DNA of 56,159 bases, from the NCBI GenBank assembly GCA_013002865.1, contig JABDLU010000081.1, positions 1 to 56,159 of the forward strand, given 5' to 3'. The notes under the pieces are model-generated. The model saw only the letters and a program-made list of their open reading frames with translations. It did no database searches and was not told the DNA's origin. The translations under genes and the position numbers were made by a program. The stretch comes from Acidimicrobiia bacterium. Its GTDB lineage: Bacteria; Actinomycetota; Acidimicrobiia; Spongiisociales; SHLN01. Below, one piece after another: positions 1,677 through 55,959 of this stretch. Each line of letters starts with the position of its first letter. The first letter of the stretch is position 1.

Positions 1677-1792
1677 CGTCGCCCGTCGCCCGTCCCCCGT
1701 CGCCAGGAAGAAACTGGCACCCTGACTTGGATTGTGCGACTTAGAGTCGGAATACAGGGGGTATTCGGACCGGCGACCGGCGACCGGCGACC
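1677..1792. repeat. Two heptamer tandem arrays: (CGTCGCC)x4 at 1677-1704 and (GACCGGC)x3.5 at 1768-1792
   Basis: Read directly; the two arrays are near reverse complements; first starts 4 bp after the stop at 1672. Confidence 0.85.
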
Positions 1793-2075
1793 TCGGAAAT
1801 CCGGAGGATTTCCGAAAAGACCAAAGGGCGCCCCGAGGGAGGCGCCCCTTGCTCGTCTACAGGCCCCTCGGCGCCGGCGGTTGGTCCGGCGTCCTCGGCA
1901 CTCCGCCTGTGAACTATCAGCCGACGGTAGTGGCAATTCCGCGCGACCGCCACTCTGAGCGGTGGTGTCTTTTCGCGTTCCGTAGCAGATTTTCGCGTTC
2001 TCATACGGCCGGCTGGAACAGGGGGCGGCCGGCGGACGTTGTTTAGATGAATCAGCCCAGGGGTACCATTCACAC

Positions 2076-2951
2076 ATGAACAACAATCTCAAGACCGTCG
2101 GTTTGCTGGCGGCGCTCGGTGCCGTCATCGTCCTCGTTGGCCAGACGCTCGGTGGCACCAGCGGGGCCGTCATCGCCCTCGTCATTGCCGGCGTTCTGAA
2201 CTTCGGGATGTACTTCTTCTCTGACAAGCTGGCGTTGCGCGCCTCCGGCGCCCGGCCGCTCGAAGAGGGAGAGCTCCCAGAGGTGTGGTCCATCGTGTCG
2301 AAGCTGGCCCTGATGGAGAACATGCCGATGCCGAAGCTGTACTACATCGACTCCCCGCAGCCCAATGCCTTCGCCACCGGGCGCAGCCCAAAGCACGCCG
2401 CAGTGGCCGTCACCGGCGGGATTCTCCAGTTGATGTCGAACGAGGAGCTGGAGGGCGTCCTGGCCCACGAGCTGGCCCACGTGCGCAACCGGGACATCCT
2501 GATCGGGACGATTGCAGCCACCATGGCGGCGGCGCTCTCGATCTTCGCCCGAATGGCGATGTGGGGTGCCCTGGGCGGACGCCGGGACAACAACAACCCG
2601 CTCGGCGGGATCATCGCTCTGGTGAGCGTCATCCTTGCCCCGCTGGCTGCCATGATCATCAAGCTCGCCATCACCCGGGCCCGGGAGTACCAGGCCGACC
2701 GCACGGGGGCGCAGATCACCGGGCAGCCGCTGGCTCTGGCCAGTGCGCTCCGCAAGCTCGAAGCCGGGACCTCCCGTATCCCGATGAACGTCAACCCGGC
2801 CGTTGCCCCGCTCTACATCGCCGATCCGTTGAAGGCCTTCGGCGGCCGGCGCGATGGGGGTGGATCACTCCGCAAGCTGTTCTCCACCCACCCACCTATC
2901 TCCGATCGCGTGGCCCGGCTCGAGGAAATGGCGAGCCCGTTCAGTAGCTGA
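2076..2951 (+). CDS. htpX: Zinc metalloprotease HtpX (M48)
   Basis: PNAFATG, HELAH zinc motif, REYQAD, STHPP; TACCAT -10 box 6 nt before ATG. Confidence 0.95.
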   Translation: MNNNLKTVGLLAALGAVIVLVGQTLGGTSGAVIALVIAGVLNFGMYFFSDKLALRASGARPLEEGELPEVWSIVSKLALMENMPMPKLYYIDSPQPNAFATGRSPKHAAVAVTGGILQLMSNEELEGVLAHELAHVRNRDILIGTIAATMAAALSIFARMAMWGALGGRRDNNNPLGGIIALVSVILAPLAAMIIKLAITRAREYQADRTGAQITGQPLALASALRKLEAGTSRIPMNVNPAVAPLYIADPLKAFGGRRDGGGSLRKLFSTHPPISDRVARLEEMASPFSS

Positions 2952-3111
2952 GAGAACGCTGAGAACGCATGCGTGCCGACGCATGCAGATTGCTGTACTG
3001 TTCCCGTGCCGCTGCCGATAGGCAGGGAAGTGGCGTTCGACTGATAAAGGGGAACTCGGTCGCTCACCGCGTGTCATAGACAACGGAAGCAACACGGAGT
3101 TCTCCAGCGAG

Positions 3112-3804
3112 ATGAACGCTCTGACGACAACGCCGCCTGCAGTTCCTACTGCTGGGGCCCACGAACCCGCCGACCACTTTCACGTCGTCCTTCCCAAGCT
3201 GTGGTCGATGGCCAGGCATGCGCTGCCGAACATCCTCGAAGGCACGGTCTGGCCGTTCGCCATCTTCTACGTCTTTCTCTTCGCCACCAACGTCTGGGGT
3301 GCGCTGCTGGCGGCACTCGCCTACAGCTATATCGGCGTGGCCCGGAGGCTCATCAAGGGCCAGCGAGTCAGCGGATTGCTCGCCCTGACGACCATCACGC
3401 TCACCGTTCGCACCATCCTCGGCCTGGCATCCGGAAGCGTGGTCGTGTATTTCCTGCAGCCCAGCCTCGCTAAGGCCGCCTTGGCCGTCGCTCTGCTGTT
3501 GTCGCTGACCAGGGCCGAGCCGCTGCTCGTCAAGGTCGCTCGGGACTTCGTGCCGCTGTCCGACGAGATGATGGAGCGGCCGTGTGTGCGTCGGTTTTTC
3601 GTCCACGCCACCGTGCTGTGGGTCGTGCTGCTGGTCGTTCACTCCGGCCTCGCCACCTACGTTCTGCTCAACGAAAGCGTCGGCTACTACGTGGCGTTCA
3701 AGTCGGTGCTCAACCTGGTCGTCAAAGGCGGCGGAATCGGACTCTCGTTCGCCTGGTTTGTCTACATCGCCCGCCGCAACGGCATGAAGGTGTCGTTCGC
3801 GTAG
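3112..3804 (+). CDS. Multi-pass membrane protein (VC0807/DUF3159-like)
   Basis: About 6 hydrophobic helices; 'GSVVVYFLQP' and 'S...PL...A.DF.PL' pattern. Confidence 0.6.
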   Translation: MNALTTTPPAVPTAGAHEPADHFHVVLPKLWSMARHALPNILEGTVWPFAIFYVFLFATNVWGALLAALAYSYIGVARRLIKGQRVSGLLALTTITLTVRTILGLASGSVVVYFLQPSLAKAALAVALLLSLTRAEPLLVKVARDFVPLSDEMMERPCVRRFFVHATVLWVVLLVVHSGLATYVLLNESVGYYVAFKSVLNLVVKGGGIGLSFAWFVYIARRNGMKVSFA

Positions 3805-3808
3805 GAAG

Positions 3809-3878
3809 GTCGACCGTCGACTGTCGACTGTCAACGGCCAGAAGCTGCTTGCTGCTTGCTGATAGCTGATAGCTGACG
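3809..3878. repeat. Heptamer arrays GTCGACY/GTCAACG x4 and GCTGCTT/GCTGATA x5
   Basis: Starts 4 bp after the stop at 3804. Confidence 0.8.
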
Positions 3879-3921
3879 GAGATCACGGATCCGTAACCAG
3901 CAACTAACCTCTTTGGCTCAC

Positions 3922-4003
3922 GGTGGGATGCCCGAGCGGACAAAGGGAGCAGACTGTAAATCTGCCGGCACAGCCTTCGGAGGTTCAAATCCTCCTCCCA
4001 CCA
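3922..4003 (+). tRNA. tRNA-Tyr(GTA), CCA not encoded
   Basis: GGTGGGA/TCCCACC acceptor stem, GCAGA-CT-GTA-AA-TCTGC anticodon arm, long variable arm, GGTTCAAATCC T-arm. Confidence 0.95.
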
Positions 4004-4066
4004 CGGCAACCCGGCTTCGCCGGGTTGCTTGCGAGTTCGGCTCCGCCGAACTCGTAGCGATGTCAG

Positions 4067-4150
4067 TCCCCCGGGCGAGCGCAGCGAGCGGGGGAGGCAA
4101 GGAGGGGGGTGGGCAACCGTGCGGGTTGCTGAGCGCGTTCCTGTGCTCCT
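4067..4150 (+). repeat. ~84-bp dispersed REP/MITE-like repeat, copy 1
   Basis: Matches the reverse complement of 11641-11723 with 6 substitutions and 2 small indels (manual alignment). Confidence 0.85.
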
Positions 4151-4186
4151 TAGTCGCGAGCTCTGACGCGCGCCTACCCTCCAGTC

Positions 4187-4612
4187 ATGATCGAAGGGTT
4201 TGCGGTCGTCGAGCGGGTTCCGGTGTTGTGGGGCGACATGGATGCGTTCGGGCACGTCAACAACACCCGGTTCATCCGCTGGTTCGAGACCGCCCGCATC
4301 GCCCACTTCAGGCGGGTCGGGATCAAGACGGCCGAGGCAGTCGGAATCGCCCCGATCCTCGCTCACGTCAGTTGTGACTTCTTGTCACCCGTCGACTTTC
4401 CCGCCGACATCCTGGTTGGGGCCCGGACCACCAAGCTGGGAACCACCAGCATGATCCACGAATATGTCGTCGCACGAGCCGACAATCCGCAGCAGCCCGT
4501 GGCAAAGGGAACCGGCGTGATCGTCATGTACGACTACGACGCCGCCGAGAAAGCACCCATCCCCGAGGATCTGAAACAACGAATTCGAGATTTGGATGGG
4601 GATTCGCTGTAG
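4187..4612 (+). CDS. Acyl-CoA thioesterase (4HBT/YbgC hot-dog family)
   Basis: WGDMDAFGHVNN motif; TACCCT -10 box 6 nt before ATG. Confidence 0.9.
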   Translation: MIEGFAVVERVPVLWGDMDAFGHVNNTRFIRWFETARIAHFRRVGIKTAEAVGIAPILAHVSCDFLSPVDFPADILVGARTTKLGTTSMIHEYVVARADNPQQPVAKGTGVIVMYDYDAAEKAPIPEDLKQRIRDLDGDSL

Positions 4613-4621
4613 GCGTCGGGG

Positions 4622-4814
4622 AGTTGCAGGTTGCGAGGAACCCGAAGGGGTTCCCGGCATCGGGCATCGGGCATCGGGCATCGGGCATCAGGGAGTTGCA
4701 GGTTGCCAGTTGCAAGTTGCAGGTCAGACTCGGGCATCGGCGTCGGGCTCGGGGGACGGGGGACGGGGGACGGGTGACTGGTGACTGGCGACTGGCGACT
4801 GGCGACCGGCGACC
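4622..4814. repeat. Compound heptamer array: AGTTGCA, CGGGCAT, and CGGGGGA->CTGGCGA series
   Basis: CGGGCAT-type x5 (4654-4688), AGTTGCA-type x4 (4694-4721), nine in-register units at 4750-4812. Confidence 0.9.
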
Positions 4815-4864
4815 TCTCGCCACGCGAGAACGGTGACTATCCTCATCCCCGCTCAATTGCGAGT

Positions 4865-4936
<72 letters not shown>

Positions 4937-10246: not shown

Positions 10247-11089
10247 ATGGCCAGACCGGAGAAGGTCGCCGTTGTCGACGAGATCAAAGAGAAGCTGGAG
10301 GAGGCCCAAGCCATCTTCGTGACCGAGTACCGGGGTCTATCGGTCGGCCAGCAGCAGCAGTTGCGCCGCTCACTTCGCAAAGCGGAAGCTGAGTACAAGG
10401 TCTTCAAGATGACCCTGGCGCGCCGGGCTGCCGAGGAGGCCGGCATGACCGACCTGCTCGTCTGGCTCGAGGGACCGACCGCGATTGCCTTCACGACCGG
10501 CGACCCGGTCCCGGCCGCCAAGAGCTTGAAGGAATTCGCCGACAATCATGACCAGCTCGTCCTCAAGGGCGGCCTGCTGGCGGGGGCCACGCTCGACGCC
10601 GCCGGCGTGCGGCAGCTGGCCGACGTCGAGCCACGCGAAGTCCTGCTCGCCAAGCTGGCGGGGGCGATGAAGGCTCCGATGGCGAACCTGGCCGGGATGA
10701 TGACCGCCGTGCTACGACAGCCGGTCACCGCCATGCAGCAACTGCTCGAGAAGCGTGAGACCGATCCGGCGTTCGCGGCCGAACCAACTGAGGGGCCTGC
10801 GGCTGCGGACGAGCCTGCGGCTGAGGAGCCTGCGGCTGCGGACGAGCCTGCGGCTGAAGAGGAGCCTGCGGCTGAAGAGGAGCCTGCGGCTGAAGAGGAG
10901 CCTGCGGCTGAAGAGGAGCCTGCGGCTGAAGAGGAGCCTGCGGCTGCCCCGGCTGAGGAGGCTGCGGCTGAGGATGCTCCGGCCGAAGAGCCTGCGGCGG
11001 AGGATGCTGCGGCGGAGGATGCTGCGGCGGAGGATGCTGCGGCGGAGGATGCCGAAGCTGCCACTGATTCTGAAGATTCCGACAAGTAG
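10247..11089 (+). CDS. rplJ: 50S ribosomal protein L10 with ~100-aa acidic repeat tail
   Basis: [36 protein letters not shown]; AAGGAG SD. Confidence 0.97.
10856..11053 (+). repeat. Coding tandem repeats in rplJ: 18-bp GAAGAGGAGCCTGCGGCT x5 and 15-bp GCGGCGGAGGATGCY x4
   Basis: Copies at 10856-10945 (EEEPAA, identical) and 10994-11053 (AAEDA). Confidence 0.95.
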
Positions 11090-11109: not shown

Positions 11110-11496
11110 ATGGCAAAAATGACCACAGACGATCTGCTCGAGCATTTCGAGACGATGACCGTTCTCGAGCTGTCCGAGTTCGTAAAAGCCTTCGAGGACA
11201 AGTTCGAAGTCACCGCCGCTGCCCCGATGGCCGTTGCCGTGGCCGGTGGCGACGCCGGCGCCGGAGCCGCCGCTGAGGAAGAGAAGGACGACTTCGACGT
11301 CATGCTCAGCTCGGTTGGCGACAAGAAGATCCAGGTCATCAAAGAGGTCCGCGGTCTCACCAAGCTCGGCCTCAAAGAAGCCAAGGAGCTGGTCGAGAGC
11401 GCTCCGGTTGCCGTCCTGGAGGGCGTCGATCAGGAGACCGCCGACAAGGCCAAAGAGGCCCTCGAAGGCGCCGGCGCCCAGGTCGAGCTGAAGTAG
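11110..11496 (+). CDS. rplL: 50S ribosomal protein L7/L12
   Basis: [32 protein letters not shown]. Confidence 0.98.
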
Positions 11497-11516
11497 TAGT
11501 CGGAGCCCTCCGGGCT

Positions 11517-11636
11517 CCGACTGTCGACTGTCGACGGTCAACCGTCAACGGCCGAAGAACGTGAAGGACGTCACCTGTGGGTGGCGTCTTTCTCGTTGCC
11601 GGTTATCGGTCGCCGGTCGCCGGTCGCCGGTCACCC
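11517..11636. repeat. Heptamer arrays GTCGACN/GTCAACN (11517-11552) and GTCGCCG-type x6 (11595-11636)
   Basis: First array continues out of the 11-bp hairpin at 11498-11522 and ends GTCAACGGCC like the 3809 array. Confidence 0.85.
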
Positions 11637-11640
11637 ACCC

Positions 11641-11723
11641 AGGAACACAGGAACGCGCCAAGCAACCCGAAGGGTTGCCCACCCCCCTCCTTGCCTCCCC
11701 CACTCGCTGGCGCTCGCGGGGGA
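11641..11723 (-). repeat. ~84-bp dispersed REP/MITE-like repeat, copy 2
   Basis: Reverse complement aligns to 4067-4150; contains GCAACCC-GAA-GGGTTGC and CTCCCCC...GGGGGAG palindromes. Confidence 0.85.
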
Positions 11724-11730
11724 GGTAATT

Positions 11731-11838
11731 CTGACGCCTGACGCCTTCTGACTGGCAACTTGGAACCTGCAACCGGCAACTTGCCGATTGCCGATTGCCG
11801 ATAGCTGATTGCCGATAGCTGATTGCTGATTGCTGATT
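11731..11838. repeat. Heptamer arrays CTGACGC x2, GGCAACT-type x5, GCYGATW x8
   Basis: Eight in-register GCYGATW units at 11783-11838, ending 1 bp from the minus-strand stop at 11840. Confidence 0.9.
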
Positions 11839-11839
11839 C

Positions 11840-12058
11840 CTACCGCACCGTGGCGAACCGCAGCATGGCGACGAAGAAGAGGACCACGCCGACGGTGATG
11901 AGGGCTCCGCCGGCGATGGGACCGGGGAGGGCGCCGAAGTCGTTGGAGTAGCACGTGGTGAGGCTGCGAGACAGCGACACGGTCTGGCACCCGATGACCT
12001 CGATGCCACGGAAAATCAGGGCAAACCCGCCTGCCATTGCCACAAAAGACAGGAGCAT
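11840..12058 (-). CDS. Small two-TM hypothetical membrane protein; start uncertain
   Basis: Two hydrophobic helices around a C-x11-C loop. Confidence 0.5.
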   Translation of the reverse strand: MLLSFVAMAGGFALIFRGIEVIGCQTVSLSRSLTTCYSNDFGALPGPIAGGALITVGVVLFFVAMLRFATVR

Positions 12059-12156
12059 TATGACCCCCCACGATGGCGATTCTCCTGTACCGGTTTTCGG
12101 CACCCCGGCGGATTTTCTTTACACCCGGCTGGATGGGCCCTCCCTATCCTCACGGC

Positions 12157-14277
12157 ATGGCGGAGGTTCCCATCGCCGTGCTCATCTCCGGGCGCGGATC
12201 CAATCTGCGACGCCTGCTGGAGGAGCAGGAGGGTTCGTCCTATCGGGTAGCCGTCGTCGTCGCCGACCGGGCCGCACCCGGCCTCGATCTGGCTCGCCAA
12301 CGGGGCATCCCGGTTCGCCAGGTGCCGTGGGGCGACCATCCGGACCGGGCCTCCTTCACGACAGCCGTGTGCGATGTAGTCGACGACTACCAGTGCCGCT
12401 TCGTGATCCTGGCGGGCTTCATGCGCATCCTCGCCGCCGAAGCGATTGATCGCTTCCCGGACCGGATCATCAACGTCCATCCGTCCCTGCTTCCCCGATT
12501 CCCGGGAGCCAGGGCGGTCGCCGACGCGCTGGCCGCCGGCGTGGATGAGACCGGCGTAACAGTGCACGTCGTCGTCGAGGATGTCGACGCCGGTCCGATC
12601 ATCGCCCAGCGCCGGGTCCCGATTCTCGGCGGGGACGACGAAGCCCGCCTCCACGCCCGGATCCAGGAACTGGAGCACCAGCTATTCCCCGAGGTGGTGG
12701 ATCAGATCTGTCGCATCGGTGTCGCCGCAGCGATCGAACAAAGGAGTGAGATGAACGATCGAGTCGCCATCAAGACGGCGCTGGTATCCGTCTCGGACAA
12801 GACCGGTCTGACCGAGCTCGGCACAGCGCTGGAAGCCGCCGGCATCACCATCCTGGCCTCGGGCGGCACCGCCCGCACGCTGGAGGAAGCGGGCATTGCC
12901 GTTACCCGGGTGGCCGATGTCACCGGCGCGCCGGAGATGCTCGACGGGCGGGTCAAGACTCTCCACCCCACCATTCATGGAGGCATTCTCGCCAACACCG
13001 AGTCCGCCGAGCACCGCGCCGATCTCGAACAGCGCGGGATCACGCCGATCGACCTGGTGGTCTGCAACCTCTATCCGTTTGAGGCCACGGTCGCCGCCGG
13101 TCGACCGGCCGGGGAGGTCGTGGAGAACATCGACATCGGCGGCCCGGCGATAATCCGGGCCGCGGCCAAGAACCACAGGCGGGTGGCGGTGGTGACCAAT
13201 CCAGCCGACTACCAGACGGTCACCGCGGCGCTGAGCGCAGGGGGCACTACCGGCGAGGAACGGCGCCGGTTGGCTGCTCGCGCCTTCGCGCATACCGGGC
13301 GATACGACGCGCTGATCCATGCCTGGCTGGCGGACGAGGACCTGCCCGAGACAATGCTCGTGGCCCTGGACCAGGCCACTGGACTGCGGTACGGGGAAAA
13401 CCCGCACCAGGAGGCTGCCTTGTACCGGCGGGCCGGGGCGGACGGTTGGCCATTCACCGCCCGGCAACTGCAGGGCAAGGACCTGTCGTTCAACAACTAT
13501 GCCGACACCGACTCCGCCTGGGATCTGGTCCAGCGCATCGCCAGCCCGGGGTGCGTCGTGGTCAAACACCTCAACCCGTGCGGGGTTGCGCAGCGCCCAA
13601 CGGTGCACGAAGCGTTCGTAGCGGCGCGGGATTGTGACCCGCTGTCGGCCTTCGGCGGTGTCGTTGCCACCAACACCGCCATCGACGAAGCCACTGCCAA
13701 GGAGATGGCAGGCATGTTCCTGGAGGTCATCATCTGTCCCGGCGTGAGCGACGAAGCGGCCGCGGTGCTGTCGGCCAAGAAGAACCTCCGTGTCCTGGTG
13801 GCCTCGGCGCCGAGCGGCTGGAAGCACGATGTGCGAGCGGTGGACGGGGGCATGCTCATCCAGGAGGCCGATTCGCGGAACGTGGAGTCGGACGAGTGGC
13901 GGGTCATGTCGAAGACCCAGCCGTCCCCCTCCCAACTCGAGGCGATGCACCTCGCCTGGACGGTGGGCGCGCACTGTAAGTCGAACAGCATCGTGATCGT
14001 CCAGGACGGTGCGGCCGTCGGAATCGGTGTCGGCGACCAGAGCCGGGTGGGGGCCGCCCGCCGGGCCGTCGCCCAGGCCGGTGATCGGTTGGACGGGGCG
14101 GTGGCGGCCAGTGAGGCCCTGATCCCGTTCCGCGATGGCGTCGATGCCCTCGCCGAGGCTGGGGTGAAGGCCCTCGTAGAGACCGGAGGAAGTCGCAACG
14201 ACGACGAGGTCATTGCCGCAGCCGATGAGCATGGGATGGTCCTGGTGTTCACCGGCCGGCGCCACTTCAGGCACTGA
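12157..14277 (+). CDS. purN-purH: Fused PurN (GAR transformylase)-PurH (AICAR transformylase/IMP cyclohydrolase)
   Basis: N-term VLISGRGSNL, LAGFMRIL, INVHPSLLP; from 12751 ALVSVSDKTGL, GRVKTLHP, IDIGGP, LRYGENPHQ, FTGRRHFRH; no stop between. Confidence 0.93.
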   Translation: MAEVPIAVLISGRGSNLRRLLEEQEGSSYRVAVVVADRAAPGLDLARQRGIPVRQVPWGDHPDRASFTTAVCDVVDDYQCRFVILAGFMRILAAEAIDRFPDRIINVHPSLLPRFPGARAVADALAAGVDETGVTVHVVVEDVDAGPIIAQRRVPILGGDDEARLHARIQELEHQLFPEVVDQICRIGVAAAIEQRSEMNDRVAIKTALVSVSDKTGLTELGTALEAAGITILASGGTARTLEEAGIAVTRVADVTGAPEMLDGRVKTLHPTIHGGILANTESAEHRADLEQRGITPIDLVVCNLYPFEATVAAGRPAGEVVENIDIGGPAIIRAAAKNHRRVAVVTNPADYQTVTAALSAGGTTGEERRRLAARAFAHTGRYDALIHAWLADEDLPETMLVALDQATGLRYGENPHQEAALYRRAGADGWPFTARQLQGKDLSFNNYADTDSAWDLVQRIASPGCVVVKHLNPCGVAQRPTVHEAFVAARDCDPLSAFGGVVATNTAIDEATAKEMAGMFLEVIICPGVSDEAAAVLSAKKNLRVLVASAPSGWKHDVRAVDGGMLIQEADSRNVESDEWRVMSKTQPSPSQLEAMHLAWTVGAHCKSNSIVIVQDGAAVGIGVGDQSRVGAARRAVAQAGDRLDGAVAASEALIPFRDGVDALAEAGVKALVETGGSRNDDEVIAAADEHGMVLVFTGRRHFRH

Positions 14278-14296
14278 GCGCCCCGGGTGCTCCGGG

Positions 14297-14695
14297 CTAG
14301 TTCGATCCGGTCGGGTGGGCACGCGGCGGCCGGGGCCGCGGGTGTTCGCACAACTCGTAGTAGTTCCCGTCGGGTGCCCGGAAGTAGAACCAGCGATGGC
14401 CGTCGCGCCCCCGTTCCATTGCCGTGATGTCGGCCACTCCGGCCCGGCTGAGTTCTTCGTGGGCTGCTTCGATGTCGTCGACCCACAGGCCGGCCACCGG
14501 GCCGGTATCGAGGTGGTCGTGTTCAACGGAGTCGGGCCCGAACAACTCGAGCCGGTCCCCGTTTTCCATCGTGAGCTGGGTGAAGCCGGCCACGTTGGTG
14601 GAGACTTCGAGGCCGAGTTGCTTCTCGAAGAACTCGGCGGTGGCGCGCCGGTCGTCTGTGCTCGACCCGACCCAGATGATGCCCTTGACTTGCAC
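14297..14695 (-). CDS. VOC/glyoxalase-family protein
   Basis: FFEKQLGL, VDDIEAAHEEL, FYFRAPDGNYYEL; GTG start with TACACT -10 box 7 nt upstream. Confidence 0.85.
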   Translation of the reverse strand: MQVKGIIWVGSSTDDRRATAEFFEKQLGLEVSTNVAGFTQLTMENGDRLELFGPDSVEHDHLDTGPVAGLWVDDIEAAHEELSRAGVADITAMERGRDGHRWFYFRAPDGNYYELCEHPRPRPPRAHPTGSN

Positions 14696-14758
14696 GGAGG
14701 CCAGTGTACGGAACGCGCCGTCGTCTAGATTGCCCGGCGAGCAGTGGGAAGGAGCCAT

Positions 14759-15820
14759 ATGCCGATCGAGACGGTCGAGGATCTGCGCAGCCACGTGCGC
14801 CTGGCGATTCAGGTTGAGCTGTCGACGATTCCCCCGTACCTGGTGGCGATGTACTCCATCGAGGACCAGCAGTCGGAGGCAGCTCTGCTGATCCGTAGCA
14901 TTGTCGCCGAGGAGATGCTCCACGCCGCCCTGTGTGCCAACCTGCTCGTCGCCATCGGTGGCCGCCCCTCCTTTGCCCCCACCGAGCTGATCCCCAGCTA
15001 CCCGATGTGGCTTCCCCATCACCGGCCGCCCCTGCAATTGCGGTTGGTGGCCTGTTCGATTGACTTGATTCGGGATGTGCTGATGCGGGTCGAGCAACCA
15101 GAGGTGTCGGGTGCGCCCGCCGAGGCGGATGTGTTCGAAACGCTCGGACAGTTCTATCACGCCCTCGAGCTCGCCATCGCCGAACTGGACGACGACTTCG
15201 ACTTGTTTTCCGATCCGCAGCGCGACCATCAGATGGGTGATGCTGCGTTCTATCGGCCGGTCGCCTTCGACGCGGAGGACAGCGGTGGGCTCCTGTTCAT
15301 CGACGACGTGGCATCAGCCGTCGAAGCGCTCGAGATCATCGTGCATCAGGGGGAGGGGCTCAGCACTGATCGCTGGGCAGATCCGGCCCACCAGGAACTG
15401 ACCCACTACCACAAGCTCGCTCAGATCGCTGATGGGACGAGTCCGCTCGGTGATGTGTTTCCGCTTCGGCCGGACGCCGTGACCGCCGGCTACCCGCCCG
15501 ACGTCGCCGCCGTATCGGACCTCTTCAACGCCGCCTACCGGTATCTCTACCTCGTGCTCGACGAGCTGTTTGGCCCGGCGGCGGACAAATCGGGTCCGGT
15601 CGGCCGGCTGTATCGGCTCATGTCCGACGTGATGTCTGAGCTGGCTCATTACCTGGTGAGACAGCAGCTGGAGGATGGCTCCCACGCCGCTCCGACATTT
15701 GAGATCTACGAGTTCGGCGCCGATCCCTCCACCGAGCTGACCGGGCTGGCCGGCCGGGTCGACGAGGTCATCAACCCGGGGTCGAGCACCTTCGTCGACA
15801 AGCTGGCCGCGATCGTCTGA
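14759..15820 (+). CDS. Ferritin-like domain protein (VioB/RebD/StaD-type ferritin-like domain)
   Basis: AIQVELSTIPPYLVAMYSI, EEMLH..CANLL.AIGG, IIVHQGEG, ELTHY motifs; AAGGAG SD. Confidence 0.75.
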   Translation: MPIETVEDLRSHVRLAIQVELSTIPPYLVAMYSIEDQQSEAALLIRSIVAEEMLHAALCANLLVAIGGRPSFAPTELIPSYPMWLPHHRPPLQLRLVACSIDLIRDVLMRVEQPEVSGAPAEADVFETLGQFYHALELAIAELDDDFDLFSDPQRDHQMGDAAFYRPVAFDAEDSGGLLFIDDVASAVEALEIIVHQGEGLSTDRWADPAHQELTHYHKLAQIADGTSPLGDVFPLRPDAVTAGYPPDVAAVSDLFNAAYRYLYLVLDELFGPAADKSGPVGRLYRLMSDVMSELAHYLVRQQLEDGSHAAPTFEIYEFGADPSTELTGLAGRVDEVINPGSSTFVDKLAAIV

Positions 15821-15834
15821 GGGCGGGCAGCCCG

Positions 15835-16836
15835 TTAGGGCTGGAGGCGCACAGTGTTACCAGGAACGACCTCGCCGATGATCCAGGCCGGGTGGTCGGT
15901 CACGGCGGCAAGGGTGGACTCAGCGTGTGCTGCCGGCACCACCAGGGCGAACCCAATACCCATATTGAAGGTCTGGAACATTTCAGCGTGCTCGATCCCG
16001 CCCCGTTCGGCGATGATGCCGAAGATGGCCGGTATTTCCCAGGAAGCGACGTCGAGGTGAGCGGTCAGCCCTTCGGGCAGAACCCGGGGCAGATTCCCGG
16101 GAAGCCCCCCGCCGGTGATGTGAGCCATCGCCCGAATCGGCAACTCGCGAGCGGCCTCCAGCACGGTTGGCGCATAGATCACCGATGGCTCGAGGACTAC
16201 GTCGCCCAGCGTGGTGCCTTCGAAGCTGTCGCGCAGGTCGGATTCGGTGAACACCGACCTGACCAGCGAGAAGCCATTCGATCGGACGTTGGGGCTCGCG
16301 ACGCCGATGATCGCATCGCCGGGTCTGACGTCACCGGGGTCGAACAGCTCGGCCGCTTCGGCGACCCCGAGCGCGGCACCGGCGAGATCGAACTGGTCGG
16401 GCTCCATGACCCCGGGATGGACGGCGGTCTCGCCTCCGAGCAAGGCGCAGCCGGCCAGGCGGCACGCGTCGGCAATAGACCCGATAATGGCCTCATCCCG
16501 TTCCGGTTGGAGAGCACCGACCGCCAGGTAGTCGGTGAATCCGAGCGGGGTCGCTCTCTGGGCGGCAAGATCGTCCACGCACATTGCGACGAGGTCATGG
16601 CCGATTCCGTCGAACTGCCCAAGCCGGCGCGCCAACTCGGCCTTGGTTCCGACCCCGTCGGTCGTCATCATCAGAACCGGCCTGGTGTAGCCGTCGGGGA
16701 TCGTGATGCCGGTCGCAAATCCGCCGAAGGTCCCCACGACGTGTTCGGTCCACGTCGCCGTCACCCGGGAGGCGATCGAGTTCGTGAAGCGGTCGGCGGC
16801 TGCCACGTCTACGCCCGCTCCCGAATAGGTGCTCAT
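15835..16836 (-). CDS. purM: AIR synthetase
   Basis: YSGAGVD, TDGVGTK, LLGGETA, HITGGG, TFNMGIG. Confidence 0.96.
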   Translation of the reverse strand: MSTYSGAGVDVAAADRFTNSIASRVTATWTEHVVGTFGGFATGITIPDGYTRPVLMMTTDGVGTKAELARRLGQFDGIGHDLVAMCVDDLAAQRATPLGFTDYLAVGALQPERDEAIIGSIADACRLAGCALLGGETAVHPGVMEPDQFDLAGAALGVAEAAELFDPGDVRPGDAIIGVASPNVRSNGFSLVRSVFTESDLRDSFEGTTLGDVVLEPSVIYAPTVLEAARELPIRAMAHITGGGLPGNLPRVLPEGLTAHLDVASWEIPAIFGIIAERGGIEHAEMFQTFNMGIGFALVVPAAHAESTLAAVTDHPAWIIGEVVPGNTVRLQP

Positions 16837-18227
16837 TCGAGGACGAACTTGTCCGGGCCGATGGGCGTCGGATAGTCACCGGACAGGCAGGCGGTGCAAA
16901 AGGTTTGGGTGGCGTCCGACACCGAGCCTTCCAGGCCGGCCAGGCTCAGGTAGCCGAGCGAATCGACCCCGAGGAATGCTTCGATTTCCTCCTCCGATTT
17001 CCCGGCCGCCAGCAGAGAGCTGCGGTCCGATGTGTCCATCCCGTAGAAGCACGGCCAGCGATACGGCGGTGAGGATATCCGCAGGTGCACCTCCTGGGCA
17101 CCGGCTGCCCGGACCACCTCGACGAGTTGACGGGTGGTCGAGCCGCGCACGACCGAATCGTCGACCAGAACGATCCGCTGGCCGTCGAGGACATCTTTGA
17201 TCGGGTTGAGCTTGAGCCGGATCCCGCGCTCTCGCAGCATTTGCTCGGGCTCGATGAAGGTGCGGCCCACGTAGCGGTTCTTGACGAGACCGTCCTCGTA
17301 CCGGATACCCGACTCCCAGGAGTATCCCTGGGCGGCCGGGATGCCGGACTCGGGCACGGGCACGACGACGTCGGCCGGAACACCGCTTTCCCGGGCCAAC
17401 TGCCTGCCCATTTCGACTCGGGCAGCCTGGACATTCTGTCCCGCCAGCACGCTGTCGGGTCGGGCGAAGTACACGTATTCGAAGACGCATAGCCGGGACG
17501 GAACGGGGTCCTGGGGAAAGTGCGAGGTCACGCCCCGCTCGTCGAGCACGACCAGCTCGCCGGGCTCAACGTCCCGTTCGAAGGTGGCGCCCACCAGATC
17601 GAGAGCCGCCGTCTCGGAGGCGACCACCCACCCGTCTGGCCCGATCCGGCCGAGGGACAGCGGGCGGAAGCCGTGCGGGTCGCGCACCGCCACCACGGAT
17701 GTGTCGTCCATCACAACAAGTGTGTAGGCGCCTTCAAAATCCGGCACGACGCCGGCGATGGCCTCCCACAGTGGAATGTCGCTCTCCTTGTGGATTCGCT
17801 CGGCGATTGCGCTGGTCATCAGCTCCGAATCGGTGGTGCCGCTCGACCCGAGCCGCTCCGCCAGCGCGGCGGTATTGGTCAGGTTGCCGTTGTGGCCCAG
17901 GGCCACACTGCGGGGCCCGATGGCGCGAAAGGCCGGTTGGGCGTTGGCCCAGGTGCTCGAGCCGGTCGTCGAGTACCGGGTATGGCCGATGCCAATGCCG
18001 CCCTGCAGCCCGGCGAGGGTGTTCCGGTCGAAGACCGACGACAACAGTCCCATGTCTTTGTAGGTCGTGAGACGCTGGCCGTTGGAAACGGCGATTCCGG
18101 CGCTCTCCTGCCCGCGATGCTGGAGGGCGAACAGGCCGAAATAGATGAGGTTGGCGACGTGAGTCTCCGGGACGAACGCCCCGAACACCCCGCAGGCTTC
18201 GCCCGGCTTTCCAAGTGAGTCACTCAT
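16833..18227 (-). CDS. purF: Amidophosphoribosyltransferase (propeptide/Fe-S type)
   Basis: EA-CGVFG after an 11-aa propeptide, LQHRGQE, GHTRYST, VDDSVVRG, FCTAC. Confidence 0.96.
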   Translation of the reverse strand: MSDSLGKPGEACGVFGAFVPETHVANLIYFGLFALQHRGQESAGIAVSNGQRLTTYKDMGLLSSVFDRNTLAGLQGGIGIGHTRYSTTGSSTWANAQPAFRAIGPRSVALGHNGNLTNTAALAERLGSSGTTDSELMTSAIAERIHKESDIPLWEAIAGVVPDFEGAYTLVVMDDTSVVAVRDPHGFRPLSLGRIGPDGWVVASETAALDLVGATFERDVEPGELVVLDERGVTSHFPQDPVPSRLCVFEYVYFARPDSVLAGQNVQAARVEMGRQLARESGVPADVVVPVPESGIPAAQGYSWESGIRYEDGLVKNRYVGRTFIEPEQMLRERGIRLKLNPIKDVLDGQRIVLVDDSVVRGSTTRQLVEVVRAAGAQEVHLRISSPPYRWPCFYGMDTSDRSSLLAAGKSEEEIEAFLGVDSLGYLSLAGLEGSVSDATQTFCTACLSGDYPTPIGPDKFVLE

Positions 18228-22188: not shown

Positions 22189-22224
22189 GCTGGCGATTGT
22201 AGGTCGGTGGGTCGCGACCTCTGG

Positions 22225-22698: not shown

Positions 22699-22723
22699 TC
22701 GTGACTCCTTGTTCGTCGATCGA

Positions 22724-23971: not shown

Positions 23972-24099
23972 GGTGCGAGCATAAAGCACCCGGGGGAGCC
24001 CTCCGCCGTGCCGGCGGGACACAGCGTCCCCTAGCCTCGGTGGATGTCGATGAGGCCAACCCCAATGGCACGGACCGCCGGTTGCGGTGAGGACCAGCC

Positions 24100-27557: not shown

Positions 27558-27600
27558 ACCGAGCTATCCCGCCGGCTGGCGGATGATCGTCTTCATTTTC

Positions 27601-27803
27601 CGTCCCCGGTCCCCCGTTTCCCGTCCCCTGTCCCCCGACCGGCGTCCGGCGACCGGCGACCGGCGACCGGCGACCACTGACCCCCGTCCCCCGTCCCCCG
27701 TCTCCCGACCGGGGAGTCCCCACCGGCGACCGGCGACCGGCGACCACTGACCACTGACCACTGACCACTGACCACTGACCACTGACCACTGACCACCGAC
27801 CTC
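27601..27803. repeat. Compound heptamer array of 29 in-register units (CGTCCCC / CGACCGG / TGACCAC families)
   Basis: Manual 7-bp phasing from 27601 to 27803 needs no gaps; TGACCAC x7 perfect at 27748-27796. Confidence 0.93.
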
Positions 27804-42118: not shown

Positions 42119-42920
42119 CAAGCTGACCGCTCCGCTGTACGCCGCCGACGGCACCGCCAAAGGTGACGTGTCGCTCGACGCTGCGATCTTCGGGATCGAG
42201 CCGAACGTGTCGGTCATGCATCAGGTGGTGACCGCACAGCTGGCAGCCGCCCGCGCCGGAACCCACAGCACCAAGACCCGCGCCGAAGTGCGAGGCGGGG
42301 GCCGCAAGCCGTGGCGTCAGAAGGGTCTCGGACGTGCCCGGCACGGATCGATCCGCAGCCCGTCCTGGACCGGTGGTGGCGTTGCCCACGGGCCCAAGCC
42401 GCGCGACTACTCGCAGCGGACCCCCAAGAAGATGAAGCAGCTGGCGCTCCGGTCGGCTCTCTCGGCGCGCGCCGCCGATGGCCAGATCCGGGTCGTCGAG
42501 GCGTTCGACTGGGATGGGCCCAAGACCAGGAAGGCCGCCGATCTTCTCAAGGCGATGGAGTCGGGGTCAAAGGTCCTGGTCGTTGTCGATCGGACCGACA
42601 CCGTGGCCAATCGGTCTCTGCGCAACCTCGAGAACGTCATCGTCAACGGCCAGGTCAACCCGTACGACGTGCTGTGGGCCGACACCGTGGTCTTCACGAG
42701 CGCCACCCTCGACGCCGTCACCGGCGCCAGTGACTACTCGGTCGGAGACGAGGATTTTGTCAAGGAGGATGCCGGTCGCCAGTCGCCGGTCGCCGGCAAA
42801 GAAGTCCCCAGTTCCCCGACCCCAGACCCCAGCGAAGATTCTGAGCCGACTGCTGACAGCCGACAGCCGACAGCTGACTCCGACGAGGCAGCGTCAGCTG
42901 CCGAGGAGGAGTCCACGTGA
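42111..42920 (+). CDS. rplD: 50S ribosomal protein L4 with repeat-derived C-terminal extension
   Basis: [28 protein letters not shown]. Confidence 0.98.
42774..42878. repeat. Heptamer arrays inside the rplD 3' end: RGTCGCC x3, AGTCCCC/AGACCCC x4, WGCYGAC x5
   Basis: Same unit families as the intergenic arrays. Confidence 0.85.
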
Positions 42921-44333: not shown

Positions 44334-44680
44334 TCGTTAAGGCTCAGGCCCGCCACGTGCGCCAGTCGCCCTATAAGGTGCGCCGGGTGCTTGACCTCAT
44401 CCGGGGACTCCCGGTTGAGGAGGCGCGTACCACGCTGCGGTTCACCAACCGCCGTGCGGCCGAGGCCGTCTCCAAAGTGCTCGATTCGGCCATCGCCAAC
44501 GCCGAGCACAACAACGCCCTCGACGTCGACATGCTGTACGTCGCCGAGGCATATGCCGGGGAGGGCCCAACCCTCAAGCGGTTCCGGGCGCGCGCCCGGG
44601 GTCGCGCCGGACGCATTGATAAACGCACCAGCCACATCGTGGTCGGTGTCGCCGAGCAGGAAGAGGAGGGATCGGCCTAA
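44330..44680 (+). CDS. rplV: 50S ribosomal protein L22
   Basis: [29 protein letters not shown]. Confidence 0.98.
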
Positions 44681-45801
44681 TGGGCCAGAAAGTCCACCCG
44701 TACGGGTTCCGGCTCGGTATTACCACCGACTGGAAGTCCCGCTGGCACGCTGACAAGGGCTACGCCGATCTCGTCAATGAAGATTCTGAGATCCGCGACT
44801 ACCTCAACGGCGAGCTGCTGCGCGGCGCCGTGTCACGCATTGAGATCGAACGCATCGGTGAGCAGATTCAGGTCGACGTCCACACCGCCCGACCGGGTGT
44901 GGTCATTGGCCGTCGTGGCGTGGAGGCCGACCGGCTGCGGGCCGGCCTCGACAAGATCACCGGCCGGCCCGTCAAGCTGAACGTCATCGAGGTCAAGGAT
45001 CCCGAGACCGACGCCAAGCTGCTTGCCCGGGGCATCGCCGATCAGCTGCAAGGTCGCGTGGCGTTCCGGCGGGCGATGAAACGAGCGGTCCAAACCGCCA
45101 TGAAGGCCGGGGCGCTCGGCGTCCGGGTCGAGGCGAAGGGTCGCCTTGGTGGGGCCGACATGGGCCGGCGCGAGTGGTACCGGGAGGGGCGCGTTCCCCT
45201 TCACACCCTGCGGGCCGATGTGGACTACGGCGAGGCAACCGCCCGGACCACGGTTGGGGCGATCGGCATCAAATGCTGGGTCTACAAGGGGGACGTCGTA
45301 CCGTCGCTGTCCAGCACCCGCGAGAAGATCGCTGCCGAGGCTGCGTTGGCGGCGGGTGGTCCGAGCCACATGGCGCCCGTCAAAGCCCGCGCCGAGGAAG
45401 CGGCCGGAGAAGACCGCTCCAAGAAGCTCATTGAAGCCGGTGGCGGAAAGCGGCTCATTGAAGCCGGCGGTGGCCGCCGCAAGGGCGAAGGCCGCCCCGA
45501 GGCCAAGCCGACCCGCGATGACCTCGACGACGATTCTCTGGATGATGCCGAGCCGATCGTTGCCGCCGACGATGTCGAAGAAGTCGCCAGTCCCCAGACC
45601 CCCGACCCCAGCACAGAGCTTTCGGCCCCGTCCGAGCCGACTACCGACGGCGAGGCCTCTGAGCCGGCGACCGGCGACGGGGGACCGGCGACCGATGAGA
45701 GCAAGGGAACAGCTGTCGAGGCTTCTGAGCCGGCGACCGGCGGCGGGGGACAGGCGACCGGCGACGACGAAGGTGCGAAGGCACCTGAGGAAGGCGCCTA
45801 A
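44680..45801 (+). CDS. rpsC: 30S ribosomal protein S3 with long C-terminal tail
   Basis: [32 protein letters not shown]; ~160-aa extension. Confidence 0.98.
45582..45764. repeat. Heptamer arrays and a 44-bp duplication inside the rpsC tail
   Basis: AGTCGCC/AGTCCCC/AGACCCC/CGACCCC at 45582-45609; CCGGCGA/CGGGGGA blocks at 45664-45698 and 45730-45764. Confidence 0.8.
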
Positions 45802-53903: not shown

Positions 53904-54371
53904 TCACCGAACGGAACTACCCGCCGGTTCTGGAAACGTTGTGCGCAGGTCGAACGCCGCCGCCGTGGGACCGTCGCGCCGCAGCGCGTTGAGGCGGTCG
54001 GCAGCTTCGTTCAAGTCGGGGATGTGGCCTTCTGCTATCCACCACAGCACAGTGGTCGGCTGATCGGCCTTCTCGAACCATTCACGGCGGCGTCGGAGGT
54101 ACATGGCGTGTCCCGAGCGGGTCACGAAATGGTGCAGGGCGTCGATGCTGGTCCAGACCGTCAGGTTGGCGATGTAGCGCTCGTCGTGCTCGTAGCCGGG
54201 AAAGCGCTGTCCGGTAGCGCCCTCTCCGTCCTCATCCTTGAGCATCCAAACGAAGCCGGGGCTGACCTCGCCCAGGCCGTTGATTGGCCCGAGCGCCCGC
54301 ATGAATTCGGCAACGGTGTCAGATTCAGGATCGTCTACCAATCGGCCGACATTGAGCTGAGCGAGGTGCAT
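53904..54371 (-). CDS. DUF3291-family protein
   Basis: HLAQLN, SPGFVW, NLTVW, RRREWF, LWWI..GHIP, GPT..AF. Confidence 0.8.
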   Translation of the reverse strand: MHLAQLNVGRLVDDPESDTVAEFMRALGPINGLGEVSPGFVWMLKDEDGEGATGQRFPGYEHDERYIANLTVWTSIDALHHFVTRSGHAMYLRRRREWFEKADQPTTVLWWIAEGHIPDLNEAADRLNALRRDGPTAAAFDLRTTFPEPAGSSVR

Positions 54372-54592
54372 GGGGCGAGCCTACCGGAGCGTGTTTCGCC
54401 TGATTTGGGCGCCACTCGGGCCGACCGGAGGAGTAGTCCATCCCAGCGACGGCCCCGTGGCCGCAGATGCGGCGCATCAAGTGAATGCGGACTCGGTTGC
54501 CGAGACGTTCGGCTGGGCCCCGTTGTTCCGTCGATCGTGGCGTGTCCGCACCGGAGCCGACCACGTCCCCGACGCCGGTAACCTGACTCCTC

Positions 54593-55156
54593 ATGGGACG
54601 AAGACTTCTGTTGATGGGCCCGCCCGGCGCGGGCAAGGGAACCCAGGCCAGCCGGCTGGCGCGCGCCATCGGGATTCCCCACCTTTCGACCGGCGACATG
54701 CTGCGCTCCAACGTGGCCGACGACACTGAGCTGGGGCGGCAGGCCAAGGCGTTCATGGAGGCCGGCGATCTCGTGCCGGACGAGCTGGTCACCGCGATGG
54801 TCATCGACCGTCTCGGCCAGGACGACGCCCGCTGCGGGTTTCTGCTCGACGGCTATCCCCGCAACCCGGCTCAGGCCGATGCACTGGCCGACGCATTCGG
54901 CGAGGATGTGCTCGAGCTGGCAATTCTGCTCGAAGTCGACCCTGACGAGCTCGTGACGCGTCTGCTCACCCGGGGCCAGCAGCAAGGTCGTACCGACGAC
55001 ACGGAGGAGGTCATCCGCAACCGGCTGGCCGTCTACGAAGAGCAAACGGCGCCGCTGGTCGCATACTACGAGTCCCATGGCCGCCTGGCCTCCCTCGACG
55101 GGCTCGGAAGCATCCCCGATGTTTTTGGGCGCATTATCGAGGTGCTGGCGACATGA
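54593..55156 (+). CDS. adk: Adenylate kinase (short LID)
   Basis: GPPGAGKGTQ, STGDMLR, LDGYPR, GRTDD. Confidence 0.97.
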   Translation: MGRRLLLMGPPGAGKGTQASRLARAIGIPHLSTGDMLRSNVADDTELGRQAKAFMEAGDLVPDELVTAMVIDRLGQDDARCGFLLDGYPRNPAQADALADAFGEDVLELAILLEVDPDELVTRLLTRGQQQGRTDDTEEVIRNRLAVYEEQTAPLVAYYESHGRLASLDGLGSIPDVFGRIIEVLAT

Positions 55157-55902
55157 TCACGATCAAAGACGAGGCCGGCTTCGAGCGTATGCGGACCGCC
55201 AGTCGCACCGTTGCCGAGGTGCTGGGCGAGCTGCGGGAAGCCGCCGCGCCCGGGGTCAGCATGACCGATCTCGACGCCATTGCGGCCCGGATCATCCGCG
55301 ACCGGGGTTGCACGCCATCCTTCCTCGGCTACCACGGGTACCCGGCGACCATATGCGCGTCTCCCAACAATGTGATCGTCCACGGCATCCCCGACGGCTA
55401 CACGTTGAAGGAGGGGGACATCTTGTCGGTGGACGTGGGCGCCATTTACGAGGGATTCCACGGCGACGCCGCCAGAACCTTCGCCATCGGTGAAGTGCCC
55501 GATCAGGTCTCCAAACTCATCCAGGTCACCGAGGAATCGATGAACGCTGGGATCAGCCAGGTCAAGGCTGGCGCCCGGATAGGCGACATCGGAGCCGCCG
55601 TCCAGCAGGTGGCGGAGGGGGCCGGGTTCTCGGTGGTTCGTGAGTACGTCGGACACGGCATCGGGGAAGCAATGCACGAGGAGCCCCAGATACCCAACTA
55701 CGGCGACCGCGGCAGAGGCATGAAGCTGAAAAAGGGCATGGCGATCTGTATCGAGCCGATGGTCAATGTCGGCGACTGGCGCACCGAGGTGCTGGACGAC
55801 GGCTGGACGGTGGTCACCGCCGACGGCAGCCTTTCCGCCCACTTCGAGAACACCATCGCAATCACGACCGACGGCGTCGAAGTGATGACGGCGGACGGCT
55901 AG
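55153..55902 (+). CDS. map: Methionine aminopeptidase type I
   Basis: VHGIP, DVG, GD, GHGIG..MHEEP, IEPM, SAHFENT. Confidence 0.97.
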   Translation: MITIKDEAGFERMRTASRTVAEVLGELREAAAPGVSMTDLDAIAARIIRDRGCTPSFLGYHGYPATICASPNNVIVHGIPDGYTLKEGDILSVDVGAIYEGFHGDAARTFAIGEVPDQVSKLIQVTEESMNAGISQVKAGARIGDIGAAVQQVAEGAGFSVVREYVGHGIGEAMHEEPQIPNYGDRGRGMKLKKGMAICIEPMVNVGDWRTEVLDDGWTVVTADGSLSAHFENTIAITTDGVEVMTADG

Positions 55903-55910
55903 CGCCGTTC

Positions 55911-55959
55911 GGTCAGTGGTCAGTAGTCAGTGGTCAGTAGTCAATGGTCAGTGGCCAGC
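55911..55959. repeat. Heptamer array RGTCAGT-type x7
   Basis: GGTCAGT GGTCAGT AGTCAGT GGTCAGT AGTCAAT GGTCAGT GGCCAGC; a rotation of the reverse complement of the TGACCAC unit at 27748. Confidence 0.88.

Follow-up and report, generated by a model that had tools for sequence, protein, structure and literature searches.

The 56,159-nt stretch of DNA analysed here (hereafter, the window) is contig C209 of a metagenome-assembled genome (MAG) labelled G000, which comprises 2.92 Mb in 224 contigs with a G+C content of 66% and a completeness of 90%; its relatives carry labels of the form Gxxx, and their genera are numbered gN. The gene content of the window is ordinary, with rplJ/rplL, rpoB, an unsplit rpoC, fusA, tuf, the S10/spc ribosomal cluster, map and a purN-purH fusion. 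No record returned exceeds 70% identity to the encoded RpoB, the best matches are all from Actinomycetota, and judging from these sequences the host is an uncultured, deep-branching lineage of that phylum. The spacers between these genes hold tandem arrays of 7-bp units (heptamers), and the subject of this report is the placement of these arrays, their distribution among relatives and their relation to small cassettes that encode an S23p-family protein (PF05635/TIGR02436).

Heptamer arrays in spacer DNA

Arrays were called with Tandem Repeats Finder (TRF) in the window and in the whole genome. In the window, the period-7 rows number 22 and fall into 9 clusters, with more than 10 unit types among them (Table 1), and direct inspection of the sequence reveals strict head-to-tail heptads, for example at 27600-27801 (about 200 bp in one register) and 4656-4815. 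A preliminary description of the window had listed about 11 loci with a strict 7-bp period and at least 10 different units, all of which TRF recovered. It had also placed the arrays just after stop codons. This holds for six of them, which begin 4, 4, 43, 21, 42 and 8 bp beyond the preceding stop in crude gene calls, but not for those at 42771-42878 and 45587-45765, which lie inside the L4 and S3 open reading frames (ORFs).

In the genome as a whole, TRF counts at periods 7, 6 and 8 are 637, 194 and 99 arrays, of which 558, 13 and 22, respectively, are intergenic according to a crude codon-usage gene caller built for this analysis (2796 genes, 90% coding). The intergenic null consisted of ten dinucleotide-matched simulations of the 284 kb of intergenic DNA, against which observed counts and simulated means are 557 versus 6.9 at period 7, 13 versus 2.5 at period 6 and 21 versus 9.0 at period 8. 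The excess over a matched null that the preliminary description had anticipated is thus sharply specific to period 7, at approximately 80-fold, with 2- to 5-fold at periods 6 and 8. The period-7 arrays have a median of 4.1 copies and a maximum of 19.4, and 182 of the 637 are 100% pure.

We see a negligible chance that the arrays are an artefact of assembly or binning, a concern raised by the 224-contig MAG and by the presence of an array within 100 bp of 38 of its 448 contig ends. Against this, array edges are reproduced with few or no differences in Logan contigs of several public runs from three studies, X1-X3 (X1 record 7 spans 27093-27675 with 0 differences, and X2 record 9 spans 11698-12716 with 3); the strain is present in samples of beach sand and sediment. 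Similar arrays occur in closed genomes of the order, such as G088 and G153, and most arrays lie inside contigs between intact genes.

Placement within spacers is far from random. In the 110 same-strand spacers with arrays, the median distance from the upstream stop to the first array is 16.5 bp and that from the last array to the next start is 94 bp, and the arrays are nearer to the upstream stop in 94 of the 110. Arrays occur in 58 of 153 convergent spacers (of at least 40 bp) and in 31 of 385 divergent ones; they lie approximately 16-17 bp from both stops in the former and approximately 56-60 bp from both starts in the latter. The non-random placement at gene ends proposed earlier therefore stands, but what looks like anchoring to stops is more plausibly an exclusion of arrays from the 60-90 bp upstream of each start, that is, from promoter and leader space: arrays fill whatever spacer sequence the promoter or leader of the next gene leaves free, and so begin a few bases past stops. 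Inside ORFs there are 71 arrays, 12 of them in the first fifth. Relative to the upstream gene no strand bias was found (239 arrays: 90 G-rich, 122 C-rich), which argues against an RNA-level motif or a Rho site. A leader motif, YTCTKRC, is present at 108 of 475 arrays, compared with 34 in an outward control.

Closeness to stops and enrichment between convergent genes would fit a selected function, with arrays serving as terminators, insulators, binding platforms for RNase III or proteins, G-quadruplexes (G4) or backup stops. Some units do place a stop codon in each of the three frames, some are G-rich (for example GGGGACG), and the available text of PMC4692102 reports G4 formation in vitro by Xanthomonas and Nostoc units. 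We nevertheless consider a selected function very unlikely as the explanation of the arrays, which comprise about 70 unit types without strand bias, lack conservation at orthologous junctions and do not occur in close relatives (see below). Units that contain a stop are only modestly enriched (42% versus 27%), and 21.5% of arrays have a perfect hairpin within 45 bp, as against 16.5% of controls. A role as contingency loci in phase variation was rejected, since the arrays follow the stops of housekeeping genes (rplL, map and a hyuB-like gene).

Repeat class, unit sequences and variation among relatives

The arrays had at first been put forward as candidates for an undescribed kind of repeat. 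However, an excess of heptameric simple sequence repeats (SSRs), their intergenic bias, their proximity to stops and their rarity between divergent genes are already published (PMC4692102), and the arrays belong to this class of heptameric SSRs and short tandemly repeated repetitive sequences (STRRs), now in a new phylum; in the literature searched we found no account of such arrays in Actinomycetota. The available text of that paper, by Rehm et al., cites a 2007 survey in which heptameric SSRs are over-represented in many bacteria and, as an earlier heptamer case, the heptanucleotides of Calothrix. It describes GGGAATC in Xanthomonas and GGGGA(C/T)T in Nostoc as intergenic, within 50 bp of stops or starts, rare between divergent genes and variable among close relatives; in that text no function is found, and the only proposed cause is an effect of the polymerase footprint on slippage (its reference 33). 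The arrays described here share with these repeats tandem 7-bp units, an excess at period 7 only, a bias towards intergenic sites near stops, rarity between divergent genes, and variation in length and sequence among close relatives. They differ in their Actinomycetota host with 66% G+C, in their roughly 70 units with no single consensus and only a minority prone to G4 formation, and in being a near on/off trait, mapped over 151 genomes, that is linked to S23p cassettes. They are not STRRs in the strict cyanobacterial sense, given an Actinomycetota host (unsplit rpoC, RpoB matches) and a similarity of units that is not above random.

A second point of comparison is the TAACTGA heptamers of marine Beggiatoaceae, cyanobacteria and Bacteroidetes (MacGregor, PMC4679880). 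These too are heptameric direct repeats with a patchy distribution and close relatives that have none, and the available text suspects horizontal spread and gives no mechanism. They consist of one unit, mostly just upstream of starts and in one orientation, with translational control suggested, whereas here the units are many, follow stops and show no strand bias. In both papers the heptamer excess still lacked an accepted origin or function as of 2015 (PMC4692102, PMC4679880), and our literature searches found nothing later that settles either.

Among the 496 arrays of at least 3 copies in G000 there are 70 distinct canonical units, the most common being of the ACCGGCG and ACCACTG types, and one unit type alone is found in 72 arrays. 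With so few units, and one of them so widespread, arrays at different loci are not independent births. The preliminary description had reduced the units to an RAY core, usually YRAY, and this core is real: RAY is present in 97% of arrays, compared with 58% of random intergenic 7-mers, and for YRAY the shares are 85% of arrays, 64% of distinct units (70 in all) and 35% of random intergenic 7-mers, although these counts are not independent because the units are related by descent.

The manner of that descent can be read from places where different units meet. Abutting arrays of different units share a common 7-bp register in 19.8 of 34 cases, where 14% would be expected; a global 7-bp phase across the separate arrays of one spacer was considered and rejected, as the register is lost once a few bases intervene. 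At 80 in-register junctions between different perfect-dimer units, the two units differ by 1 nt in 50 cases and by 2 nt in 20, whereas random pairs of the same units do so in 1.8% and 3.5% of cases, and 39 of the 50 single-base changes are transitions. The variety of units is the product of point mutation inside arrays, with slippage or unequal exchange then adding or removing whole units. Since in-register junctions are mostly one base apart, ordinary mutation suffices and no writer with changing templates is needed, contrary to the length-measuring enzyme that had been postulated from fixed length and varied sequence. Templated repeats of a reverse transcriptase (RT) or telomerase-like kind were likewise rejected, given single-base steps linking the 70 units and no PF00078 match found in the 90%-complete genome.

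Units compared between genomes, including the cyanobacterial loci L083 and L085, match within one mismatch no more often than random 7-mers, and identical units are only 2-3 times more frequent than in the random-7-mer null. The resemblance to particular cyanobacterial STRR units noted in the preliminary description therefore carries little weight, and we dropped similarity of units between genomes as evidence of a shared sequence-specific mechanism.

Comparison with relatives, which are all drafts or MAGs and, as kin, are not independent data points, shows how quickly arrays come and go. Against 485 kb of G005, a genome of the same genus without arrays in this DNA, G000 has 162 conserved adjacent gene pairs, and 11 of these junctions hold arrays in G000 alone. 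The orthologous G005 sites are not empty: the median spacer at the 11 junctions is 140 nt in G005 and 205 nt in G000. The start-proximal part of these spacers aligns between the two genomes, and where G000 has heptamers the stop-proximal part in G005 is unrelated sequence. The hyuB-rpoB junction differs in content among these same-genus relatives despite RpoB N-termini that are 94-96% identical: G000 carries 200 bp of heptamers there, the G005 spacer of approximately 100 nt holds none, G004 shows hairpin modules, and G006 combines hairpins with a different array.

The same contrast extends across the order. TRF applied to sampled DNA of 19 relatives finds rich genomes beside poor ones, with 36 arrays per 100 kb in G006, 45 in G022 and 1 in G005. 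For a census we defined a richness index as the number of matches to a degenerate pattern, GAY at 7-bp spacing five times (or the reversed YAG), for which we estimate a chance expectation of approximately 0.1 per genome and which misses units lacking GAY or YAG. Tallied by hand over 151 genomes of the order, all at least 80% complete, the index is 0 in 54 genomes, 1-19 in 35 and at least 20 in 62 (hereafter, ‘array-rich’), with at least 100 matches in 35. Rich and poor genomes stand side by side within genera g1, g13, g15, g31, g45, g9, g37 and g41. Array richness behaves nearly as an on/off trait in this set of relatives, within genera as well, which points to a lineage-specific factor and not to a general property of replication; and because it switches within genera across the 151 genomes, its determinant should be mappable by comparative genomics. 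The gene-content contrast between G000 and G005 is too divergent for such a search because too many genes differ (reciprocal best matches for 295 of 441 G005 proteins in the 485 kb, at a median identity of 74%).

S23p cassettes as a possible origin of the arrays

The preliminary description had suggested profiling gene families that co-occur with heptamer-rich genomes, and a candidate for such a family was found, outside the window. A PF05635 gene is present in 56 of the 151 genomes, comprising 45 of the 62 array-rich genomes and 11 of the 89 others (odds ratio 18.8, Fisher p 4e-14, uncorrected for phylogeny), and contrasts within genera (g1, g15, g45, g31, g9, g37 and g41) agree with this association. 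G000 itself has two intact S23p/TIGR02436 genes, at C195:1792-2175 (127 aa) and C76:12436-12912, with TIGR02436 scores of 118-119 bits. Both were missed by the codon-usage caller, suggesting foreign composition. The closest solved structure is XCC0516 of X. campestris (PDB 2gsc, five chains, E 6e-19).

The two G000 genes each lie between mutually inverted heptamer arrays, and the upstream arm begins right after the stop of the neighbouring gene. This architecture recurs widely: inverted heptamer arms flank the gene at both loci in G000, at 6 of 6 further loci and at approximately 17 of 20 more (approximately 25 of 28 in all), and the last 20 include four genomes without any index match. Metagenome contigs scanned with a single S23p protein as query added approximately 11 of 13 distinct loci with inverted heptamer arms, on contigs of 47-69% G+C and with proteins 35-60% identical. 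In orthologous cassettes the arm units differ, yet the two arms stay complementary (G000 versus G006, and G116 versus G104). The C195 cassette is the one that shares its locus with a cassette in G006. In array-poor genomes the arm unit hardly strays from the cassette, as in G043 and G155 (below), which counts in favour of cassette seeding.

A gene in an inverted-repeat stem has one close parallel in the literature searched for the S23p family together with heptamers, which returned only PMC4990558. The available text of that paper describes Coxiella burnetii's 23S intervening sequence (IVS) as an S23p cassette whose 28-bp terminal inverted-repeat stem is cut by RNase III and contains two or three tandem heptamers, depending on the strain; S23p is probably not even translated there, and the element is regarded as selfish, with its mobility described as unknown. 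Common to both systems are a small ORF for a four-helix bundle (TIGR02436/PF05635) in an inverted-repeat stem loop and heptamers in the arm. In contrast to the Coxiella IVS as presented in that text, the cassettes here lie between protein genes right after stops and not in rRNA, their arms are whole inverted arrays, and hundreds of solitary arrays at other sites of the genome correlate with the presence of a cassette.

Our preferred reading, to which we assign a probability of roughly 0.45, is that the arrays are seeded by cassettes and amplified by slippage. S23p cassettes would import heptamer arrays into a genome or seed them in it; where a lineage is permissive, the arrays would spread to other free spacer DNA, where ordinary unit-wise slippage would amplify and diversify them; and the arrays could outlast loss of the cassette gene. 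A polymerase-like writer would not be required. This account would cover the spread of the arrays, not the choice of 7 over 6 or 8 bases. We hold more tentatively, at less than even odds, the view that the arrays are outright footprints of the cassettes, in which the arms, or an S23p pentamer acting on nucleic acid with a 7-nt period, would both seed arrays and drive them into free spacers, and on/off switching would reflect gain and loss of the element.

A number of observations weigh against a causal role of the cassettes. For richness, S23p is neither necessary nor sufficient. Seventeen of the 62 rich genomes have no S23p gene, at least nine of them in genus g13 and eight elsewhere; g13 is rich, yet the gene is present in only 2 of its 12 genomes and is missing from the complete G088. 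Conversely, 11 genomes with S23p are not rich by the index, and G043, G139 and others have a cassette without genome-wide arrays. G000 has 2 cassettes against approximately 500 arrays, and its commonest units differ from those of both assembled cassettes. Its inverted array pairs number 33 where 24.6 are expected, barely above chance; array density is 0.35-0.37 per kb on the cassette contigs and 0.22 in the genome, so that local clustering is weak; and the window contains no S23p gene, its arrays being solitary, with none next to such a gene. Causality could also run the other way, with cassettes surviving only where arrays exist, or a third factor could underlie both.

The strongest competitor to cassette seeding is a pure slippage bias, in which the replicative polymerase favours 7-bp slips, S23p plays no causal part, and cassette stems have been heptamerised or merely persist in rich genomes. 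Mutation and amplification unit by unit have been demonstrated above, the heptamer excess recurs in unrelated phyla, and genus g13 is rich without S23p. The genetic background may also be permissive: searches for MutS (PF00488), the large subunit of ExoVII (PF02601; XseA) and RecJ (TIGR00644) found none of the three in any of the five genomes searched (G000, G005, G034, G058 and G090), with positive controls that included Corynebacterium for the last two. The functions of these three stabilise tandem repeats in E. coli, so the order may lack several repeat-stabilising functions. We rejected repair genes as the switch between rich and poor genomes, however: the three just named were found neither in rich G000 nor in the four poor genomes, DinB, Ku and RecQ occur in G000 but also in most or all of those four, and NucS, found in 136 of the 151 genomes, shows no link to richness. 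Other evidence also makes slippage bias alone somewhat unlikely. It does not predict the 54 same-order genomes without a match, among them same-genus relatives with nearly identical RpoB N-termini, or an excess as extremely sharp as that at period 7; the small number of units and the 72 arrays of a single type misfit independent births; and cassette arms are heptameric even in genomes without other arrays.

A more active part for the protein is conceivable, in which the S23p pentamer or a partner binds nucleic acid with a 7-nt period and expands arrays both nearby and in trans, constituting a transferable heptamer-promoting activity and a real repeat-writing system of the sort put forward in the preliminary description. 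Avd of diversity-generating retroelements (DGRs) is a pentamer that binds nucleic acid and RT, and S23p proteins belong to the same four-helix-bundle superfamily; the family relation is weak, with scores of 24-26 bits against Avd model NF033474, below its cut-off of 80, and the closest structure is the five-chain Xanthomonas protein. The on/off distribution with its S23p association and the complementary arms of orthologous cassettes with different units fit such an activity. So do two array-poor genomes: G155 has eight more arrays of the arm family within 20 kb of its cassette on the same contig and none in 34.5 kb sampled from other contigs, and in the complete G043 the arm unit is confined to the two arms and a single further site 6 kb away. 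We nonetheless judge an active role clearly unlikely. The case for it is drawn from sequence comparison and not from biochemistry, S23p-positive genomes without proliferation and rich genomes without S23p both exist, the diversity of units needs no template, and, in contrast to a DGR, no RT was found in G000 and no pair of template and variable repeats was seen. The Coxiella protein is, in the available text of PMC4990558, probably untranslated.

If the link of cassettes to arrays is causal, it would explain both the repeats and a protein family that is also found in rRNA intervening sequences and is related to Avd. If it is not, the arrays are still useful as fast strain markers, and they contribute in practice to fragmented MAGs and to extended low-complexity tails of ribosomal proteins.

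Searches for other determinants of a dedicated system, which the preliminary description had proposed, were negative in the 90%-complete G000. The near on/off distribution and a candidate associated cassette speak in part for such a system, but neither an RT (PF00078, RVT_1), nor a Y1 transposase (PF01797; the control was positive in 6 of 14 genomes), nor a TnpB Zn-ribbon or Uma2 was found in this genome. XisH likewise had no match in G000, a result that is uninformative, as the control matched nowhere either. Multi-copy genes or insertion sequence elements are almost absent from the G000 assembly.

The spacers also carry hairpin modules with tetraloops and a second repeat, core B, a C-rich dispersed element of 65-70 nt with a strong terminal hairpin, for which G000 has at least 84 pattern matches. 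There are 0-2 copies in same-genus genomes and none in 33 other relatives. Some copies contain an inserted tetraloop hairpin, and some form tandem units of 120-160 nt. The G-rich complementary strand folds better (-58 versus -40 kcal/mol), and core B has no Rfam match. A copy lies within 90 bp of 17.7% of arrays, compared with 4.2% of control sites. Core B, or a mosaic element containing it, was rejected as the source of the arrays: heptamers are common in genomes without core B, which is therefore a passenger. Repetitive extragenic palindromes (REPs), bacterial interspersed mosaic elements (BIMEs) and REP doublets forming hairpins (REPINs) are imperfect palindromes, short and abundant mosaic intergenic repeats after gene ends that are mobilised by REP-associated tyrosine (Y1) transposases (RAYTs). 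The spacers of G000 resemble these systems in their gene-end intergenic repeats, hairpin modules and dispersed core B near some arrays, but the arrays are tandem direct repeats and the genome has no Y1 transposase that we could find, and so they are not of the REP/BIME/REPIN kind.

Feature map and other observations in the window

The arrays of the window and the elements beside them are collected in Table 1. An Rfam scan of the window brought only 4 tRNAs to the gathering score, with nothing credible at E<=1 in 3800-4860 or 11480-11860. Nor are the arrays clustered regularly interspaced short palindromic repeats (CRISPR), which have repeats of 24-48 bp and unique spacers, as the units here are 7 bp and contiguous.

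Table 1 Heptamer arrays, core B copies and hairpins in the window, with TRF rows numbered in order of position
Position	Strand	Feature	TRF rows	Context
1677..1792		Two arrays, CGTCGCC x4.0 and GACCGGC x3.6	1-2: 1677-1704, 1768-1792	First array 4 bp past ORF stop at 1672
3809..3876		Two arrays, GTCGACT x3.4 and AGCTGAT x4.9	3-4: 3809-3832, 3843-3876	Between stop 3804 and tRNA 3922-4003
4082..4150	-	Core B copy, C-rich dispersed element		Inverted relative to 11641-11709; inverted repeat I1, 69 nt, 91% complementary
4620..4815		Hairpin (~4631-4650), then four abutting arrays, GGCATCG x4.9, AGTTGCA x4.0, CGGGGGA x4.1 and GACTGGC x5.4	5-8: 4656-4689, 4694-4721, 4750-4778, 4776-4813	Between stop 4612 and tRNA at 4865
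11501..11838		Convergent spacer after rplL; hairpin 11501-11517, core B copy 11641-11709 (+)		rplL stop at 11496
11518-11539, 11598-11635, 11731-11746, 11781-11838		Arrays of the rplL convergent spacer	9-12: 11518-11539, 11607-11632, 11731-11746, 11781-11838	Last array ends 1 bp before stop of minus-strand ORF at 11840
27600..27801		Longest cluster, ~200 bp in a single 7-bp register, CCGTCCC/ACCGGCG/GACCACT types	13-15: 27600-27707, 27722-27745, 27742-27801	Between hyuB-like gene (stop 27557) and rpoB promoter region
42771..42884	+	Three degenerate arrays	16-18: 42771-42796, 42806-42832, 42844-42878	Within 3' end of L4 gene (42111-42920); encode part of low-complexity acidic tail
45587..45765	+	Three degenerate arrays	19-21: 45587-45611, 45664-45694, 45730-45765	Within 3' end of S3 gene (44680-45801; 373 aa); encode repeated acidic tail
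55911..55958		Array GGTCAGT x6.9	22: 55911-55958	8 bp past methionine aminopeptidase (map) stop 55902; reverse complement of GACCACT array 27742-27801

Both S3 and L4 (269 aa) end in long acidic low-complexity C-terminal tails, encoded in part by the degenerate arrays, which the two genes seem to have taken up at their 3' ends. L4 scores 288.8 bits against the NCBIfam ‘sunset domain variant’, under the cut-off of 385. An extension of another kind is found in L10 (10247-11089), whose C-terminal addition of approximately 110 aa is built of 18-bp and 15-bp tandem repeats (TRF 10788-11052) that encode Glu/Pro/Ala-rich peptide repeats.

Logan contigs of the public runs end inside arrays, and with the G000 contig ends that lie within 100 bp of an array this makes heptamers a practical cause of assembly breaks in the lineage.

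Two features of gene order stand apart from the repeats. The ORF at 12073-14277 (734 aa) joins PurN (residues 34-213) to PurH (231-734) in an apparent purN-purH fusion. The stretch from rplL to rpoB (11496-28028), usually neighbours, places these genes approximately 16 kb apart in the window, with unrelated genes between them that include purNH and hydantoinase/oxoprolinase-like subunits.

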